Shown here: piece after piece, positions 20,816 to 31,800 of the stretch | Layout: the number at the start of each line of letters is the position of its first letter | Position numbering within the stretch: the stretch's first letter is position 1 | DNA from: a virus | Length of the DNA stretch: 42,547 nucleotides | IMG/VR virus record: IMGVR_UViG_3300029305_001596 | Location: 1 to 42,547 of that record | Reading direction: 5' to 3' (one strand) | Position numbers and translations under genes: made by a program | The notes under the pieces: generated by a model | What the model was told of the DNA's origin: nothing | Databases searched by the model: none | Seen by the model: the letters and a program-made list of their open reading frames with translations, nothing else

Positions 20816-21213
20816 GCCATCAGCCTCCATGCTTCCGTCAGCTCACTGGCCCGTCGGCCAACCTGTTCCTTGGTCAGCCCTGTCACAATGGGATGGTCGC
20901 CGTCCTCTGTCATCTGGTACACGTCCAGCGTCTTGCCGTTGCGTATGGCCAGTTTCTTGAGGTCGCTGGCCACAAAGAACTTGTCCTCTCCGCAGGGAAG
21001 AATCCCAGCGCTCTGCGGCATCTCCTCTGTTTTCACAGGTTCGGTCGCCTTGCAGAACCTCGGCTTTCGGGTGTTTCCGCGCCCAATGTACTTGCAAACG
21101 CTGCTGTAGCTGATCTCTGTCAGGTCTGCAATCTCCCGGTTGCTGTAACCCTCTTCACGAAGCTCAAGCAGCTCCTGTACGCTGATCTCTTTGGTAATGG
21201 TGCGTCCTCTCAT
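20812..21213 (-). CDS. HTH DNA-binding early protein (133 aa)
   Basis: N-terminal [32 protein letters not shown] (LuxR/resolvase-type HTH). Confidence 0.55.
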
Positions 21214-21785
21214 TTCTCAACCACCTCAACCAACTCTACGCGCTCGCAACGAATCTTGCCGTCCGTGTTGTAAGGCACACACACACCAGCCAACCATTCC
21301 CAACGAATCAAAACCTTCCAGATGACGCCTTTGTAGTTTCTCTTCACCCATTCAAGAGGAGCAACGTTGATACCACAGCCGCAAACATCGGTTCTGTTAG
21401 CGTTCACAACTTCCTCAATAACGGAACCTCTTTCGATCTTCCAATTGGGGTTGGGCATATACATGCTGCCAAACGTTTTGTAGGCGATATAGCCATGTTC
21501 AGTGCGTTCAAAATGTGCTTCCAGGTAATTGACCGCACTGATGAGACCTTTGGCATCGCTCAGGTTGGCATCGCTCAGGTTGGCACCGCTCAGGTTGGCA
21601 CCGCTCAGGTTGGCACCGCGCAGGTCGGCATCGCTCAGGTCGGCACCGCGCAGGTCGGCATCGCTCAGGTTGGCATCGCTCAGGTTGGCATGGCGCAGGT
21701 CGGCATGGCGCAGGTCGGCACGGCTTCCGCCTTCGCCTTTCAGCCAGTTCTCATGGTCTTCCAGAATCTTTTTGAGGTTCAACAT
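21210..21785 (-). CDS. Pentapeptide-repeat protein with unknown C-terminal domain (191 aa)
   Basis: About 13 tandem A(D/N)L(S/R)xA pentapeptides ([56 protein letters not shown]), then a Cys/Trp-containing ~110-aa domain. Confidence 0.9.
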
Positions 21786-21825
21786 GGTTTGATCATCCTT
21801 TCTATCATTTCACAAGCTCGTCGAG

Positions 21826-22218: not shown

Positions 22219-22233
22219 CTACTTTGTGGACAA
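22219..22233. promoter_or_regulatory. Distal operator copy O4 (CTACTTTGTGGACAA) at the 3' end of the cro-like gene
   Basis: Shares ACTTTGTGGACAATG with O1. Lies about 240 bp from the main operator cluster. Confidence 0.5.
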
Positions 22234-22461: not shown

Positions 22462-22554
22462 CCACTTTGTGGACAATGTGATTGTAACACAGTCTGATAT
22501 CATTGTCAACCACTTTGTGGACAAAAAAGCGAAAAAAATTGACTTAGTGGACAA
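22462..22554. promoter_or_regulatory. Operator cluster O1-O3 of the lysis/lysogeny switch
   Basis: CCACTTTGTGGACAA at 22462-22476 and 22510-22524 (inverted core CCAC-TTT-GTGG). TTAGTGGACAA at 22544-22554. Confidence 0.7.
22481..22509 (-). promoter_or_regulatory. Early (lytic) promoter: TTGACA-17-TACAAT on the minus strand
   Basis: tgtcaa at 22504-22509 and attgta at 22481-22486. Flanked by O2 (abutting -35) and O1 (over the predicted start site). Confidence 0.75.
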
Positions 22555-22590: not shown

Positions 22591-22950
22591 ATGCACACAG
22601 GCCAAAAAATAACCACGTTCAAAGAACGCCTGACCGATTTGTGCTATACAAGCGCCCAAAACGATACAGAAATAGCCAAGAGCTTGAATATATCAAAACA
22701 AACATTGAGCGCATGGAAGTGTGGTACTCGTTCTCCCAAGCAACCTACGATAGAATGCATTGCGCGGTACTTCGGGGTCAATATTGACTGGCTAATGGGT
22801 TTTGACGTACCAATGAAGAAAGAAGAAAAGCCCATCCCAGAGGATGAGCTGGATCGCATTCTTGTAAATGCCCTTATGGATCTTACGCCGCAGGAGACGG
22901 CTCAAGTGCTGGCTTTTGTTTCAGGGTTGAAAGCAGCTCGAAAAGCATAA
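22591..22950 (+). CDS. CI-like XRE-family repressor lacking a peptidase domain (119 aa)
   Basis: ATG 22591 lies 8 nt after AAGGAGGTG. HTH DTEIAKSLNISKQTLSAWKCGTRSP...IARYFGVNIDWLMG. Too short for an S24 autocleavage domain. Confidence 0.8.
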   Translation: MHTGQKITTFKERLTDLCYTSAQNDTEIAKSLNISKQTLSAWKCGTRSPKQPTIECIARYFGVNIDWLMGFDVPMKKEEKPIPEDELDRILVNALMDLTPQETAQVLAFVSGLKAARKA

Positions 22951-23029
22951 GCTTTTCTTCATAGGTTAGGGTCTTCACCAACGCTTCGGCTTCTTCTTCT
23001 CTCATCATCATATCCTCGCTTGTCGTCAT
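22883..23029 (-). CDS. Tiny acidic protein (48 aa, or 40 aa from the third ATG) downstream of a LexA-boxed promoter; antirepressor candidate
   Basis: MTTSEDMMMREEEAEALVKTLTYEEKLMLFELLSTLKQKPALEPSPAA. GAGGA SD before the ATGATGATG run. The 3' end overlaps the repressor gene antisense (22883-22950). Confidence 0.45.
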   Translation of the reverse strand: MTTSEDMMMREEEAEALVKTLTYEEKLMLFELLSTLKQKPALEPSPAA

Positions 23030-23050
23030 CGGCCTTGGTAGCGTGATTCC

Positions 23051-23080
23051 ATTATACGAACATCTGTTCGCATTTGTCAA
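23051..23080 (-). promoter_or_regulatory. Consensus promoter TTGACA-18-TATAAT with a Cheo-type LexA box CGAACATCTGTTCG in the spacer
   Basis: tgtcaa at 23075-23080, attata at 23051-23056, box at 23057-23070. The box matches the Gram-positive SOS consensus CGAAC-N4-GTTCG exactly. Confidence 0.75.
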
Positions 23081-23205
23081 TACCTTTCTTCGCGGTATTT
23101 CGCTGCCCTTCTCTTATCCCCTTCGATGATCCTGCATACCTTCTTCAGCGTTGCCGTGTCTTCCGTATCCATGGCCCAGTCCATAATCCTCTGCCTGTAA
23201 TTCAT
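23077..23205 (-). CDS. Tiny basic protein (42 aa)
   Basis: ATG 23205 lies 5 nt after GGAGGA. MNYRQRIMDWAMDTEDTATLKKVCRIIEGDKRRAAKYREERY. Its stop overlaps the -35 of the LexA-boxed promoter. Confidence 0.45.
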   Translation of the reverse strand: MNYRQRIMDWAMDTEDTATLKKVCRIIEGDKRRAAKYREERY

Positions 23206-23314
23206 AATCTTCCTCCATCCTGTTGGTTGATGTCGAAAATGTACCATGAAACGGGCGTTTCGTCTATAATCACTTCGTCCCACATTGTTTAACCATCTGA
23301 AACGGAGGTTTCCC

Positions 23315-23929
23315 ATGGAAGTTTCAGCAAAAATCATTGATCTCATCGTCGAAGAAATCAAAAAGCGCGGCACATCCTACGATGAAATAGCGCGGCTCTC
23401 CCTCCTCAGCAAGTCAACCATCAGCCGCGTTATGACGCAGAAACGTGCTTCGCCGTTCACCATTAAGCAGCTCGTAGCCTACCTTGAGATCGGTGACAAA
23501 TACCGTGCTGTCATGGGCGATGATGCCGAACCCATGCAGGGCTGCCAGATCGCCTCTGAAATGATGATGGAACTTGCTGCCGTCAGAAACGAATGGTCAC
23601 AGCGTCTGGATGATACTGTTGCAAATTATGAAAACCGCATCACCTTTTTCCACCAGCAATTGAAGTCCATTGCAGACGAACGATCCCGCGAACGCGAAGA
23701 CCAAAAAAGTATGCGTCAGCATCTAAAATCACAGATCACTCGCCTTCAGGATAATAATACTGAGCTTCTGAACCGCTTGGTCTCCGCAGAAGCAAAGGCA
23801 AACAAGTCGGAACTTCGTGCTGAGAAAAGCGAAGGCAAGCGCCACAGCATGTTCTGGGGCATGCTGGTCGTCATCATCGCTCTTTGCATCGCTCTTATCA
23901 TAGCCCTCAGTACCGACAGGATCTTTTGA
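23315..23929 (+). CDS. Membrane-anchored HTH protein: N-terminal HTH, coiled coil, C-terminal TM (204 aa)
   Basis: ATG 23315 lies 6 nt after GGAGG. SYDEIARLSLLSKSTISRVM HTH. Long heptad region. FWGMLVVIIALCIALIIALS TM. Confidence 0.7.
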   Translation: MEVSAKIIDLIVEEIKKRGTSYDEIARLSLLSKSTISRVMTQKRASPFTIKQLVAYLEIGDKYRAVMGDDAEPMQGCQIASEMMMELAAVRNEWSQRLDDTVANYENRITFFHQQLKSIADERSREREDQKSMRQHLKSQITRLQDNNTELLNRLVSAEAKANKSELRAEKSEGKRHSMFWGMLVVIIALCIALIIALSTDRIF

Positions 23930-23936
23930 GGAGGGA

Positions 23937-24260
23937 ATGCCAATGAAATATCCGTTTCACGCCTGGGTCAATTTCGGCAAGGGCGACAGCGCAGGCACTG
24001 ATATCGAAGTTGAACTGACGCAGGAAGAATTTGAGCGCATGGAATCTCTTCGCTGTATGCACCCGGATGATCGCCCGTTCTTCGATGACTGCCCTCATCT
24101 CTCGGATATCTATCACAAGGCGCATGCCGTTGCTGTTGCCCAGATCACTGCAGAGCAAATCGAATACGGAGAGCATGAGGCCTTCGACGAAGACGGAGAG
24201 CCATGGTCTGCAGACAGTGAATACAGTATTGGCGTCATGGCTTACTGGGAGTATGAATAA
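23937..24260 (+). CDS. Acidic hypothetical protein (107 aa; ATG 23943 has the better SD spacing)
   Basis: ORF track. Asp/Glu-rich (EAFDEDGEPWSADSEYS). Lies 8 nt after the preceding gene. Confidence 0.6.
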   Translation: MPMKYPFHAWVNFGKGDSAGTDIEVELTQEEFERMESLRCMHPDDRPFFDDCPHLSDIYHKAHAVAVAQITAEQIEYGEHEAFDEDGEPWSADSEYSIGVMAYWEYE

Positions 24261-24265
24261 AAGGA

Positions 24266-24760
24266 GTGTTTATTTTGCAAAACAGGAAACTCAACAAAGA
24301 GATCGCATACGCAAACGCAATTGCTAATGGACATGGCCTTAAATGGCACGGGTTCCTTATTTATTTTGTTATTTGGATGAACGCTTTGTACTGTTTTACT
24401 TATAATGTAATGCCCCTTCTTGACGGAACTGTATGGGGTGAGTATTACGAATTGATAAAGCAGTACAAACCAGACCTTTTTATTTCAGGCATTCTAATTG
24501 GGGTTGCTTACCTTATTCTTGTTGTTGGCTTAGTGAGGACGCGTTTTGCTCTTGCACAGTTTAAGAAAAATGCACCTAAAAAGCTCACGCGCTGTTATAT
24601 CATTTCGATTGTTCTGCCAGCAACCTTTTGGTTGTACTCAAGTGTGAGTATAAGTGAATTTATTCCAATGCCTTGGATCATAAGCGCGTTAGGCACCTGT
24701 TTTGGGGCCTTTATCAATCATATCTATTATAAGAAACGCAGCTACCTGTTCGTAAACTGA
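24266..24760 (+). CDS. Four-TM membrane protein in an A+T-rich island (164 aa; TTG 24275 alternative start)
   Basis: Hydrophobic segments WHGFLIYFVIWMNALYCF, ISGILIGVAYLILVVGLV, CYIISIVLPATFWLY, IISALGTCFGAFINHI. Sequence is visibly more A+T-rich than its flanks. Confidence 0.7.
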   Translation: MFILQNRKLNKEIAYANAIANGHGLKWHGFLIYFVIWMNALYCFTYNVMPLLDGTVWGEYYELIKQYKPDLFISGILIGVAYLILVVGLVRTRFALAQFKKNAPKKLTRCYIISIVLPATFWLYSSVSISEFIPMPWIISALGTCFGAFINHIYYKKRSYLFVN

Positions 24761-24781
24761 CATTTAGATGGTGATAAGTCT

Positions 24782-25885
24782 ATGCCACGTCAAACATTGA
24801 AACGCCGTGAAGACGGCAGGTTCCGTGTCAAGTACCATGGCATTCAGTTCTACGGCTCCACACAGAAGGAAGCCATGCAGAAGCGCGATGAATACAAAAA
24901 ACGTCTGGAAGCAGGCATCCTTGAAGAAAACAGCATCAAAACCTATGCTGCACGCTGGGTGTCCACATACAAAAGCCATGTTTCGCCAAACATGTACAAC
25001 ACCCACGTCCGCATCCTCAATCGCCTGTGTGATCATATCGGCAATAAGCCCATGGCTGATGTCACCACCATGGACCTGCAGTCGTTCATCAACACCGTCA
25101 GCGATAAATCACAGAAAACCATCAATGCATACCGTGACACCGTCAAAGGCATGTTCAAATCCGCTTTAGGAGACCGTGTAATCGCCTTCAACCCAGCCCT
25201 TGGTATCACACTTCCAAAAGGAACCAAAGGCTCCCACAGGGCTATCACAGCCGAAGAACGGCAGCTTCTCTTATCTGTCCAGCATCGCATCCGCCCAGGT
25301 GTTCTTACCATGCTGTATGCCGGTCTGCGTCGCGGTGAAGCAATGGCTCTTGACATTGACCGTGATGTGGATTTTGAATCCAAAACCATAACCGTCAGGG
25401 AAGCTCTCCGCTTTGAGGGCGGCCATCCTGTCCTCACCAACACCAAAACAGAGGCAGGTGAGCGCACCATCCCCCTTATGCCCATTTTGGTGGAAGAGCT
25501 TAAAGGCAGGCATGGATTGCTCATGGTAGATGTTGATGGCAACCTCATGTCAGAATCAGCTTTTGACCGTGCGTGGTCTTCTTATATCACCACATGCGAA
25601 ACCACCCTCAATGGCTGTGCAAAAAGATGGTACGGCAAAAAGAAAGAACACCAGAATCTGGAACTTCCCCCATGGCGTTCTGTTGATATCCGCCCTCATG
25701 ATCTGCGCCATTCCTTCTGCACCATGCTATATGATGCTGGCATTGATCTGAAAACAGCGCAGAAATGGATGGGGCATGCTGATTATTCCATGATCATGCG
25801 AATCTATGCGCACCTCACAGAAGAAAAAGAAGCCGAAGCCAAAAAAGCTCTTCTGGGGTTCAAAACGGGGTTCAACGCTCAATGA
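24782..25885 (+). CDS. int: Tyrosine integrase (367 aa)
   Basis: C-terminal catalytic region RPHDLRHSFCTMLYDAGIDLKTAQKWMGHADYSMIMRIYAHL (R..HxxR..Y). Adjacent to a tRNA-derived attP. Confidence 0.95.
   Translation: MPRQTLKRREDGRFRVKYHGIQFYGSTQKEAMQKRDEYKKRLEAGILEENSIKTYAARWVSTYKSHVSPNMYNTHVRILNRLCDHIGNKPMADVTTMDLQSFINTVSDKSQKTINAYRDTVKGMFKSALGDRVIAFNPALGITLPKGTKGSHRAITAEERQLLLSVQHRIRPGVLTMLYAGLRRGEAMALDIDRDVDFESKTITVREALRFEGGHPVLTNTKTEAGERTIPLMPILVEELKGRHGLLMVDVDGNLMSESAFDRAWSSYITTCETTLNGCAKRWYGKKKEHQNLELPPWRSVDIRPHDLRHSFCTMLYDAGIDLKTAQKWMGHADYSMIMRIYAHLTEEKEAEAKKALLGFKTGFNAQ
25855..25875. repeat. Arm-type repeat pair GGGGTTCAA x2 left of attP (inside the integrase 3' end)
   Basis: GGGGTTCAA at 25855-25863 and 25867-25875. 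The same 19-mer GGTTCAAAACGGGGTTCAA recurs at 26092-26110. Confidence 0.6.
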
Positions 25886-25939
25886 AAGCATTATAAAAGC
25901 CTTATAAATCAAAGGATCCGCATTCGTAAAGCATTTTAT

Positions 25940-25984
25940 TTCGGGACCAAAAGGTCGCAGGTTCAAATCCTGTCACCTCGACCA
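25940..25984 (+). other. attP core: 3' portion of a tRNA-Pro(CGG) (anticodon loop to CCA)
   Basis: TTCGGGA loop, CCAAA, AGGTC, GCAGG-TTCAAAT-CCTGT, CACCTCG-A-CCA. No 5' half is present, so it is not a functional tRNA gene. Confidence 0.75.
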
Positions 25985-25987
25985 CTG

Positions 25988-26022
25988 AAAACCCTTGATT
26001 TACAAGGGTTTTCTTCTTTTTT
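25988..26022 (+). terminator. Rho-independent terminator after the tRNA fragment
   Basis: AAAACCCTTG (25988-25997) pairs with CAAGGGTTTT (26003-26012), then CTTCTTTTTT. Confidence 0.75.
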
Positions 26023-28897: not shown

Positions 28898-31800
28898 TTA
28901 TTTCTTCAGCCAATTGGCCTCAAAGTTGTAGTCATCATACAGCCCGGTCTGGTACAGGATCCGGCGAATCTCCTTGCGCTGCGCTTCGCTCGCCTGCTTG
29001 TAATGTTCCTTCATGAAGCTGGTAACAGTGCTCTTGATGGAGCTTGCTTTGGTACCGGCATACTCAAGGCCCTTTACATAGCTGCCAAGGTTCTTGTAGT
29101 TGCCACGGCTCACTTCGTCGGCAATTGATGATTTATTGATGCTTTTCTGTTTGGTCGAAACAGTCTCCATTGCAGTTTCATAGCCTTCAGTTCCCTTGCC
29201 AAAAGCCTCGGCAACAGCAACGCTCTTGGCCAGATCCACAATGGCTTTCACCTTCTTTGCCTTTTCGTCATCGCTCAACGCCTGGTATTCCTTGCTGCCG
29301 ATCAGTTCTTCCACGCCAGTCACCGCAATCTCTCTGCCGTTTGCATCGGCGTAGGTCCCGCCCTTATACCACAGTTCGCCATAACGTTTCTTATACGCTT
29401 CTTTCTGGAAGGGGTCCAGCGTTATGCTGTTTCCCTTGCTGGTCAGCGTATCCTTCGTTCCGCTCAAAGCGTCAACCGGCAGCATGTCGCTTGCGCCGGT
29501 CGCTTCACTCAGCCGCAGCAGTTCATTCACAACGGCGTCATCTCTTGCATCTGTCGTGGTAAAGGGGTCAATGAAGTTGCGCCAGTTTTCCTTGGTCATC
29601 ACGCTCTGGCCGGTCACATCCACCTTCTCAGGCAGCAGCTCATTACGGATCCAGGGAAGCTTATTGATCAGTCCGCTCTTCAGTGCAGCCATCATCACAT
29701 TCTTGTCCTTGGTATCACGCACATACGGGTCCACAGCGTTGGCAAGCTGACTGATCAGTGCAGGAACGTTCTGGCTTAAGGCGCTCTCAATCAGCGTGTC
29801 ACGGATGTTTTCCGATGTGCTGCCGTACCCTTCAAAGATATCCTTCAGTCCGCTCATAAAACTCGCGTCCAGGATCTGATCCATGCTGGCTGTCGTTGCG
29901 CTCATCATAGCATTCCATGCATCTTCGTCATCTTCAAAAATGCTGTTGGCAGCAACGCCCATAATGATGGGAGAAACCGCAGGCGCAAATGTGCTCAGGC
30001 TCATGTATTCATTGGTCAAAGGATTGTAAACATAGGGCGTGTACTGCGCACCTACAGCCGTTTGCAATCCGCGCTTCTTTGCATCATCCTCGTCCTGCGT
30101 ACCCATTTTGATCACGCCCAGGCTGCCAAGCATCATGCCCAGGCCAACCATCGCACTGCCGGTCAGCCCTCGCGCCATCCCTTCCACAAACCGCTGCTGT
30201 TCAAAGGTTTCTCCGCGCACTGCTCGCATGCCGTGCTGTATGGCCGTCTGTGCAAGGCCCATGGGGCTGTACTGCCACATGCGTTTCACAATGTTGGTAG
30301 GAACGCCGGTAAACGGCATAATGTAGTCCAGTGCATCGCCGATTCCCGGTATGCGTTTCATCGCGCTCAGCGCGTCCCGCACAGCGTTATCCTCGGTAAA
30401 AGTGGCAAAGTTGGCGTCGTTCTCCGCACGCTCCACCATCTGGTCATAGGTCGGTGTGGTTCCGTCCTCGTTGTGAAGAAGCCCACGATCCAGCAGCTTC
30501 TGCTGTTCGGAAAGACTGTTCACATACGCCTTCTTCCAGAAGTTTCGGTCACCAAAGCTCATCAGGAAGCTTTCCACGTTGCGGAAGGTTTCCAGCGCAT
30601 TACTCTGATACACACGCCCTTCACGTCTGGTGTTGTACTTGTCTCCCTGCCTGTTTTGCACTTCCGCCTTGTCCACAAAGAAGTCACGGAAAGTATCCTT
30701 TGTTTCCTGTGCAAAGGCCTTCCATCCGTCAGCACGTTCCTTCATGTTCAGGGATGCCACTGTACGCTGCCCACTTGCTGCGCCTATGGCCGTGTCAAGA
30801 CCAACGGCAATTCCGTGGCTCACTGCGTTCATAGTATTCTGCGCCACGTTGCCAATCACGTTTCTCATGGGGCTGGTCAGTGTGCCAAGCATGCTCATGT
30901 ATCGCCATGTACGCAGCTTTTCGCGGCCGGATACGGGCGTAATGTTGCCAAACGCCTCGTAGGCACGGGCAATGGCAAGGTCAGCATCTCTTCCTCCGCT
31001 TTCAGCACCAGCACCAACAAACAGGCCAAGCTGTGCGCCAATGTAGTCAAGGTCGGCTGTCGTTACCACTGCAAGTCCTTCGTTCATGTACTCAAGGCGC
31101 TGCACAAGAGTAAGGCCGTTCATCTCATTCATGGGATACGGTGTGGCCAGAATAGCCTCTAACATTCGCTGTTTCACCGTGGCACGGTTGTAGTTGATGC
31201 CAGGGCGACGTTCCTTGCCAAGTTTGTACTGATCAATCAGTGCTCTCTGGTATCCGTTCAGTTCAACGCCATAACGGCTGTCGTAAGAAGCCTGTTCAGG
31301 TTCCGGCAAACCAAGCAGCTTACTGCGCACCTGTTCAGCTGCGCTATCCATAGCCTTCTTTTTGGGTGCATGCGTCCGCAGCTCCTCCTGAAGGCTATTT
31401 TCAAGGCTGCCTGCAACCATTGCCTTTGCGCCAGTGGGGCTCATCTTGCTGAACAGTTTTCGTGCCTGCAGCTCCTGGCCTGCCTTGGTGCCCTCGCGGT
31501 TGTACTTGCTGGCAATGGCAAGCAGCGTTTCTGCGTCACCGTTGTGGTTTGCAATCGCCATTATCACATTGGCTTCCGCAGTATCGTCTGCACTGAAACG
31601 TTCCAGCCCAAGCAGTCTGTCGCGTTCCTGCTCAAAACCGTTTTGCACAATGCGGTTGTACCCGCGCTCTGCCTGCTCCATGTTGGTGTCAATCTCATAG
31701 TTCAGTTCTTCCGGGTTCTGGTACATTTCCTGCTTCAGCCAGTCTGGCATGGCTTCGCTTTGCTGCACGCTCTGCCTGGCAAACTGTCTCTCGCCCATGG

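Follow-up and report, generated by a model that had tools for sequence, protein, structure and literature searches.

Three small genes packed between the repressor and the integrase of a temperate gut phage raise the question of whether they constitute a single prophage-encoded system or a juxtaposition of parts with independent histories. The phage is represented by the virus record IMGVR_UViG_3300029305_001596 of IMG/VR, and the window analyzed here is this complete record of 42,547 bp, which bears a 127-bp direct terminal repeat. Of the ORFs (open reading frames) in the window, only five genes lie on the plus strand, namely those for a cI-like repressor, the three genes in question (23315-24760), which we term g1, g2, and g3, and a tyrosine integrase (int), while the opposite strand carries cro-like, early, and late genes. 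A first-pass annotation made from the sequence alone had read the trio as a membrane-anchored DNA-binding protein, an acidic protein, and an A+T-rich membrane protein, and had proposed that they could act together as the sensor, modulator, and membrane effector of a superinfection-exclusion, abortive-infection, or other prophage-encoded defense function. As a description this was accurate throughout: all the ORFs are present, and the repressor upstream and the integrase downstream, both recognized by Pfam, place the trio in the lysogeny module as claimed. The functional proposal fares differently, in that g1, g2, and g3 assort independently across related loci and very probably do not form an obligate system. 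On balance, we lean modestly toward reading the locus as a lysogeny-side operon of independent kinds of genes, in which g1 would be the conserved regulator and g2 and g3 the cargo of a variable slot.

Independent assortment of the three genes

Both a g1 homolog and an integrase are visible in 10 distinct loci (related loci are designated below by numbers prefixed with L), and in every one of them int lies zero to two genes downstream of g1. What stands between the two varies. In six loci, g1 is followed directly by int (L002/L003, L007, L010, L011, L096, and L098/L099); in two, g2 alone intervenes (L004 and L009); in one, a gene for an 87-residue protein with two transmembrane (TM) segments does so (L097); and the complete order g1, g2, g3, int is seen in the window only. 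By our count g1 occurs without both g2 and g3 in six of the 10 loci and without g3 in nine. The slot just before int is thus filled in the relatives by nothing, g2, g3, a two-TM protein, or a lipoprotein.

The gene that does not vary is g1, the only gene of the lysogeny module found in all the relatives, with 45-58% identity. The repressor cI is undetectable in L002, L009, and L010, and the integrase is either of a different type (24% identity) or undetectable in L002, L004, and L007. Since cI and int vary while g1 stays, g1 is tied neither to one immunity type nor to one integration specificity. This conservation across all relatives, combined with an operator-like site of its own (see below), marks g1 as a core gene rather than as cargo. 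The view of the interval as a typical location for cargo therefore holds for the variable slot before int, into which g3 has been inserted, but not for g1.

g1 encodes a predicted tail-anchored XRE-type protein

The g1 protein is 204 residues long, and its ATG start is backed by the homologs, all of which begin with MEVSAK or MEISAK. The N-terminal helix-turn-helix (HTH), the coiled coil, and the C-terminal TM segment that had been noticed at first pass are recovered in the ORF, in the homologs, and in a model generated with AlphaFold2 (AF2), which has a mean pLDDT (predicted local distance difference test score) of 84.8. In this model, a five-helix HTH domain spans residues 2-70 (helices at 2-18, 22-29, 33-42, 47-57, and 60-70, with the succession of helix 2, turn, and helix 3 present) and leads into a single continuous helix from residue 75 to residue 203, the last ~20 residues of which are hydrophobic. 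Foldseek searches with the N-terminal domain recovered C.BclI, the N-terminal domain of SinR, C.Esp1396I, and HipB, with probabilities of 0.99-1.0 and TM-scores on the target of 0.63-0.72. At the sequence level, residues 14-59 match the Pfam HTH_3 domain (PF01381) just under its threshold (E 4.3e-4; 20.7 bits versus a cutoff of 23), and the repressor families of PHROG match g1 with E values of 8e-4 to 1e-2. By its model, then, the N-terminal domain is an XRE fold.

A collection of 5.8 billion proteins contains 20 homologs of g1 with 46-93% identity, all of about 215 residues and none of them annotated. All 21 sequences agree without exception at the recognition helix (S32, T35, I36, S37, and R38) and at the backbone-contact positions next to it. 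A second set of invariant positions lies in the long helix (H136, L137, Q140, R143, L144, N147, N148, L151, L155, and E159), whose best heptad register has L137, I141, L144, N148, L151, and L155 in the core. A zipper with Asn in its core is typical of parallel dimers. Basic residues stand just before the TM segment, and about five residues follow it (S-T-D-R-I-F) as part of a conserved AL-x-T-D-(R/K) tail. Judging from these features, g1 is best described as a tail-anchored dimer; with a helix of ~100 residues, we estimate that its HTH domains might reach as far as ~15 nm into the cytoplasm from the inner membrane surface. A comparison of g1 with the relative that is 93% identical to it reveals 23 synonymous and 14 non-synonymous codon changes, and we therefore conclude that the gene is under purifying selection.

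Sequence searches place g1 in no described family. Matches to Mit_KHE1, FlxA, EssA, and SH3_and_anchor were rejected as weak compositional coiled-coil/TM bias stemming from the long helix, and the only match in PADLOC-DB v2, to LeoBC (E 0.0096, 13 bits), is of the coiled-coil type. One marginal match was obtained when the g1 alignment was used as a profile against the chain sequences of the PDB. Scans of IMG/VR, the GTDB genomes, and JGI contigs recovered no relatives of g1; tblastn against 50,697 GenBank phages gave no match for either g1 or g3, and blastn of the region returned one short integrase-related match and nothing else. In the literature we found no description of a tail-anchored XRE protein in a phage lysogeny module.

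A related complete phage without g1 (G001) carries, directly upstream of its integrase (L101:1901-2512), a 203-residue protein that is Cys-rich at its start and combines an HTH with a coiled coil without having a TM segment. This protein gives a weak hhalign match to the g1 family (probability 40%, E 3e-4) that includes the RL-x-x-N-(D/N)-x-L motif of the zipper. The existence of such a TM-less protein hints that the HTH-zipper part might be the core of the architecture and the membrane anchor an addition to it.

A conserved palindrome around the start of g1

Approximately 90 nt 5' of g1 are conserved among the loci even though the genes farther upstream differ from one locus to another. This control block contains a perfect palindrome, GAAACGGGCGTTTC, at 23248-23261, directly after which stands a -10-like TATAAT (23266-23271). 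Elsewhere in the family the -10-like box reads CATAGT or CATACT, its A2 and T6 never changing. The palindrome recurs as GAAACGGAGGTTTC at 23299-23312, where it overlies the g1 ribosome-binding site. If one mismatch is allowed, the palindrome GAAACGnnCGTTTC has two matches in the 42.5 kb versus 0.11 expected, and both are around g1. The more permissive half-site pair GAAAC-N4-GTTTC, again with at most one mismatch, has four matches in the genome where 0.84 would be expected, and a 710-bp stretch around g1 contains three of them; the weaker third copy, at the start of g2, recurs in L094. Across the relatives, the palindrome is found 55-90 nt upstream of g1 in nine of the 11 distinct loci.

An RNA element in the leader of g1 was considered and rejected: the consensus fold has a free energy of only -1.96 kcal/mol, there is no covariation, the single-sequence z-score is 0.47, and Rfam has no match. 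The palindrome itself, read as RNA, would be a 6-bp stem with a 2-nt loop, which cannot form. With neither an RNA stem nor covariation, a significant fold, or an Rfam match, we take the palindrome to act at the DNA level. Control of the g1 promoter by cI was likewise rejected, as the cI-type operator CTTTGTGGACAA is absent from the g1 control region.

The pairing of an invariant recognition helix with a conserved palindrome private to the g1 promoter is characteristic of HTH proteins that autoregulate. This co-conservation suggests that g1 binds the palindrome, and g1 is, as far as sequence comparison can indicate, a probable self-regulating regulator of the operon running from g1 to int. For the more specific proposal that the palindrome is the means by which g1 autoregulates the operon, we regard the case as evenly balanced. 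Several points count against this regulatory interpretation. The left arm of the palindrome is degenerate in two lineages, L002/L003 and L007/L008. The factor binding it could be another phage or host protein, as only co-conservation connects it to g1. The control block has no consensus -35 box, and a simple promoter scan called no plus-strand promoter there. Further, a simple autorepressor does not obviously need a membrane anchor, which leaves a part of the role of g1 unexplained. Finally, the sample of relatives is small, with ~11 loci, many of which are short contigs.

A probable operon and a proposed circuit

The gaps between g1 and g2, g2 and g3, and g3 and int are 13, 14, and 21 nt, respectively, and from 23315 to 25885 the plus strand has only one terminator-like site, a weak stem of five pairs that lies within int at 25565. 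This spacing, with no strong terminator, suggests that the four genes probably form one operon. We propose that a promoter at about 23230-23275 would drive g1, whatever cargo follows it, and int. The g1 dimer, anchored in the membrane and held together by its parallel zipper of ~100 residues, would bind the palindrome GAAACGnnCGTTTC at two places, the g1 promoter and the g1 ribosome-binding site, and this feedback would determine how much of the int-bearing transcript is made. A genome that has just entered and is as yet unrepressed would then produce a burst of integrase, following which the feedback would keep the operon low in the lysogen. Such a circuit would be separate from the cI/cro switch, with different operators, and the cargo genes would ride on the g1-int transcript. 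Of these, g3 would act at the membrane by itself, its most plausible role being superinfection exclusion or some other lysogenic-conversion function. With respect to the anchor, we see several possibilities, which we rank as follows: turnover by a membrane protease, analogous to the control that FtsH exerts over CII, CIII, and Xis of phage lambda; tethering of an end of the prophage; and capture of related genomes that enter the cell with the same operator.

g2 is an optional acidic protein

The first-pass estimate of a strongly acidic protein of 105-107 residues is matched by g2, which has 105 residues, an isoelectric point (pI) of 4.3, and 25 acidic (D+E) versus six basic (K+R) residues. Its start is placed at the second ATG, which has the better spacing to the ribosome-binding site and agrees with the called homologs. 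Only four homologs were found (94, 73, 71, and 42% identity), and the scans of IMG/VR and JGI contigs recovered no relatives. Its AF2 model is confident (pLDDT 90; predicted template modeling score, pTM, 0.83); Foldseek searches of PDB and BFVD with it gave nothing with an E value below 0.1. Searches of Pfam, PHROG, and NCBIfam gave no usable match for g2, and PADLOC gave none at all.

Six contexts of g2 were seen, and in each of them the gene immediately upstream encodes a protein whose TM segment is located at or close to the C-terminus. Four of these upstream genes are g1 (in the window, L094, L009, and L004). The other two, in L095 (L095:1-417) and L006 (L006:3-95), specify a different protein that cannot be aligned with g1 and that combines a coiled-coil-like stretch with a hydrophobic segment and a tail of 28 residues. 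The N-terminus of the latter protein is cut off by the contig end, and the visible start looks like the last helices of an XRE domain; it is possible that the protein is a non-homologous replacement of g1. The L095 version has no relatives in the IMG/VR scan. We regard g2 as an acidic accessory that is optional and that may modulate whichever membrane-anchored protein precedes it.

g3 is a recently inserted moron

The g3 protein has 161 residues from a TTG start and is the same as the called protein P0021. In keeping with the earlier reading of a four-TM product of A+T-rich DNA, it has four hydrophobic segments (about 24-45, 64-96, 104-127, and 126-151), and its gene is the lowest-GC stretch of the genome. 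The GC content of g3 is 0.38-0.39 versus a genome mean of 0.546 (standard deviation 0.040), a value as low as which is reached in just 0.14% of 486-nt windows, and its GC at third codon positions (GC3) is 0.43 versus 0.54-0.58 in the adjoining genes. A recent acquisition, as had been suggested from composition, is borne out by both this deviant GC content and a clean 520-bp indel relative to L009. In L009, g2 (94% amino acid identity) and int (97%) are separated by merely 8 nt; the DNA homology to L009 stops at 24260, in the g2 stop codon, and resumes at 24781, one base before the start of int.

Genes like g3 also occur away from this slot. L007 has a g3-like gene (30% identity) at a different site of its genome, among minus-strand genes beyond the attachment site, with its own TTGACT-17-TATAAT promoter, terminators on both sides, and a GC content of 0.38 versus 0.57. 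In the complete phage G001, tandem g3-like paralogs of 161 and 159 residues (L013:3947-4952) form a 1.2-kb A+T-rich island with a GC content of 0.36-0.40 between an NlpC/P60-SH3 gene and a giant gene; profile searches found neither g1 nor g2 in this phage. Considering the indel relative to its relatives, the deviant composition, and the separate signals of the L007 copy, g3 is a moron, although no separate promoter is visible for it in the window.

The g3 family is large. A three-member profile run against 1.84 billion cluster representatives recovered 1762 relatives at E <= 1e-3, 1000 of them at E <= 1e-10, and g3 aligns over its full length with a family of proteins combining a zinc ribbon with four TM segments (E values down to 1e-36). 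Many members are longer than g3, and 25 of 42 sampled members, a sample biased to long ones, carry an N-terminal zinc ribbon. DUF2569 (PF10754) is matched weakly by five of the 42 (best E 2e-5) and not by g3 itself. The species genomes of GTDB contain 151 stretches with relatives, nearly all in gut or rumen Clostridia such as Oscillospiraceae, Ruminococcus, Christensenellales, and Lachnospiraceae. Among the 80 of these 151 chromosomal loci that were kept for analysis, 48 have an N-terminal CxxC...CxxC motif, the zinc ribbon that g3 lacks along with the Q/P-rich linker behind it, and at 79 of the 80 no other gene of the phage group lies within 5 kb. The copy of Ruminococcus bromii ATCC 27255, for example, lies between spoIIE/ruvX and deoR/valS, and its match to DUF2569 scores 20.3 bits versus a cutoff of 26.5. 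The chromosomal homologs differ from their flanks by -0.03 in GC content on average, as against -0.15 for the phage g3, for which reason we rejected the amino acid content of a membrane protein as the cause of the low GC. We conclude that g3 is a phage version, without the zinc ribbon, of a membrane protein common on the chromosomes of Clostridia, and that it was taken from a genome of lower GC content.

The alignment of 42 members speaks against a CPBP/Abi-type intramembrane protease, which would have conserved Glu-Glu-x-x-x-Arg and His motifs in its TM helices: it has no invariant Glu or His, and its invariant columns are W24, L93, Y151, R155, and F159. NCBIfam LnsB gave 20 bits versus a cutoff of 240, no Pfam threshold was reached, PADLOC had no match, and PHROG and NCBIfam offered nothing usable. 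We would assign g3 a role as an exclusion gene only tentatively and consider this to be the less likely outcome.

Two other occupants of the slot before int are of a membrane-associated kind. L095 has a 97-residue lipoprotein, with a signal peptide and an LLTGC lipobox, in the place of g3 (L095:771-1064), and the two-TM gene of L097 (L097:1695-1958) has a GC content of 0.45 versus 0.52-0.56. Sie2009 of the lactococcal P335 phages and Ltp of the Streptococcus thermophilus phage TP-J34 are small membrane or lipoprotein superinfection-exclusion genes, which are variable, expressed from the prophage, and situated in the repressor-integrase interval. The lipoprotein, the two-TM protein, and g3 fit such a variable slot, but there is no sequence or profile similarity to Sie2009 or Ltp, and g3 comes from a chromosomal family of Clostridia.

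Other features of the lysogeny module

The principal features are collected in Table 1. A copy of a tRNA or transfer-messenger RNA (tmRNA) 3' end and then a terminator hairpin (25987-26013) stand 3' of int, which gives this region the appearance of a phage attachment site (attP). Rfam has a weak tmRNA match at 25866-25984 (E 0.078), and ARAGORN called no tRNA in the attP-like region.

Table 1. Lysogeny-module features by position in the window
Feature	Position	Strand	Evidence
cI-like repressor	22591-22950	+	Pfam HTH_3 and Phage_CI_repr; PHROG repressor families
Conserved non-coding control block upstream of g1	23226-23314	+	Aligns across 7-8 loci with differing flanking genes
g1: predicted tail-anchored XRE-type HTH protein with leucine-zipper-like long helix and C-terminal TM segment	23315-23929	+	ORF, 20 homologs, AF2 model, fold matches, hydropathy/heptad analysis
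g2: optional small acidic alpha/beta protein	23943-24260	+	Homologs, AF2 model
Candidate site at g2 start: weaker third copy of the half-site pair, GAAATATCCGTTTC	23945-23958	+	GAAAC-N4-GTTTC, <=1 mismatch
g3 cassette: 520-bp A+T-rich insertion (coding sequence 24275-24760)	24261-24780	+	Indel relative to L009, GC content, family search
Tyrosine integrase (int), last gene of the probable g1-g2-g3-int operon	24782-25885	+	Pfam Phage_integrase, E 1.8e-20
attP-like copy of tRNA/tmRNA 3' end, then terminator hairpin	25935-26013	+	T-arm and acceptor-like sequence read in the DNA

Between the repressor and g1 lie two small minus-strand ORFs that the first-pass annotation had not mentioned. One of them (22883-23080) has a perfect consensus promoter at 23080-23051. 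The other (23077-23205), which stands upstream of it, encodes 42 residues, has a strong ribosome-binding site, diverges from g1, and is 90% conserved in L009; the g1 control block might serve this leftward gene as well. The cI-type operator repeat is found in exact form at 22222, 22465, and 22513 and with one mismatch at 22543, the repressor's own operator repeats spanning 22465-22554. An additional exact copy is present on the minus strand within the giant gene of the window (30669-30680). A pentapeptide-repeat gene near the switch (21210-21785) constitutes another indel relative to L009: its flanks (21000-21212 and 21788-21824) are 95-97% identical to L009 3641-3893, where 3 nt separate them. 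The switch thus has a second swappable accessory gene beside it.

Comparison with known systems and alternative explanations

Membrane-anchored DNA-binding proteins are known from several other contexts. ToxR, TcpP, and CadC, which are thought to bind their target promoters while anchored in the membrane, resemble g1 in having an N-terminal cytoplasmic DNA-binding domain and a single TM helix. Their DNA-binding domain, however, is an OmpR-type winged helix, whereas that of g1 is of the XRE type without a match to Trans_reg_C; they have a periplasmic sensor domain, whereas g1, as a predicted tail-anchored protein, has only about five residues after the TM segment; and g1 differs from them further in its ~100-residue zipper, in being encoded by a phage, and in heading an integrase operon. 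The nearest phage analog known to us is p16.7 of phi29, a small protein in which a TM anchor and a coiled coil are joined to a helical DNA-binding domain and the dimer of which holds phage DNA at the membrane. It differs from g1 in having its TM segment at the N-terminus, in binding DNA non-specifically, and in functioning in early lytic replication.

Against this background, the notion that g1, g2, and g3 constitute a single Rex-like or abortive-infection-like prophage defense system, with a membrane sensor, a modulator, and a four-TM effector, draws on the tight packing and common orientation of the genes in the lysogeny module, on the constant position of g2 behind a gene for a membrane-anchored protein, and on a parallel with lambda. 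RexB is a four-TM protein of ~144 residues, similar to g3 in size and topology, and RexA and RexB are an obligate pair co-oriented with the repressor in the immunity region. The analogy fails on co-occurrence: each of the three genes is distributed independently of the others, L009 is otherwise near-identical but lacks the cleanly inserted g3, and g3-like genes occur in L013, where g1 and g2 were not detected, and alone, with a promoter of their own, in L007. There is, moreover, no sequence similarity to the Rex proteins, and the comparison with known defense families that had been suggested as a check came back empty, with none of the three components matching a defense or exclusion family, be it Rex, Abi, or other, in PADLOC, PHROG, Pfam, or NCBIfam. 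We consequently find the three-part system very unlikely. In a narrower partnership, g2 would resemble a DNA mimic and act as an anti-regulator, binding to the HTH of the membrane-tethered protein encoded upstream and tuning its repression. The acidity of g2, its compact and confidently modeled fold, and its location downstream of a TM protein gene in six of six contexts (g1 in four, the unrelated protein of L095 and L006 in the others) are compatible with this; yet most g1 genes lack a g2, and neither PDB nor BFVD offers a fold match to a known DNA mimic, such that we view the proposal as improbable.

The membrane anchor invites two other readings of g1 itself. In one of these, g1 would be an exclusion protein at the inner face of the membrane that captures or represses incoming related genomes sharing its operator in spite of a different cI immunity and thereby blocks the establishment or integration of competitors. 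Conservation of the operator and the recognition helix among relatives with unrelated repressors and integrases is in line with such a role, as are the anchor and the conserved external tail motif; its presence in every relative, on the other hand, fits a core regulator better than a variable exclusion gene, and the site lies ~23 kb from the genome ends and hence would not be among the first DNA to enter. There is precedent in AbiP and PdpSau, membrane-anchored nucleic-acid binders that cause abortive infection (PMC10127798), but these have an N-terminal TM segment and an OB-like fold, and g1 shows no similarity to them or to any PADLOC model. Taken together, we accord this exclusion role a small chance of being correct. 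In the other reading, g1 would be a membrane-sequestered regulator that is switched by proteolysis (by FtsH or a site-2 protease, for example) or by the state of the membrane, which would couple the expression of the integrase or the lysogeny decision to envelope physiology. The order of DNA-binding domain, zipper, and C-terminal TM segment recalls membrane-tethered transcription factors released by cleavage, the TM segment and the TD(R/K) tail are conserved, and the TM-less protein before int in G001, with its weak alignment to g1, would represent an anchor-free counterpart. Nevertheless, g1 has no protease gene linked to it and no identifiable cleavage motif, and the ~5 residues outside the membrane leave no sensor domain, all of which renders a proteolytic switch unlikely. 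A conserved, probably self-regulating g1 at the head of an operon with interchangeable cargo is the reading we retain.

Implications

The lysogeny modules of phages of Gram-positive bacteria usually read repressor, cargo, integrase. Here, the supposed first cargo gene is the most conserved gene of the module, and it has a private operator-like site and a predicted membrane anchor and belongs to a family without any annotation. The object of main interest is g1 as a candidate for a conserved, membrane-tethered regulator with a putative operator of its own at the head of an integrase operon. The same locus serves as a warning that adjoining lysogeny-module genes should not be called a "system" until their co-occurrence has been checked. 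Its third gene provides a clean, dated example of the capture by a phage of a truncated version of a widespread host membrane protein and, as such, a concrete candidate for exclusion by mimicry.

More speculatively, g1 may stand for an undescribed class of tail-anchored XRE-plus-leucine-zipper regulators that constitute a third, membrane-linked circuit in the temperate phages of gut Clostridia, with its own operator, gating the integrase, holding the prophage end, and with its position filled elsewhere by non-homologous proteins of the same architecture; we consider this generalization rather doubtful at present. If the regulatory reading is true, it would mean that the expression of the integrase in abundant gut phages is under membrane-based control by an unannotated family, and it would point to a possible coupling of envelope state with the integration or excision of a prophage.

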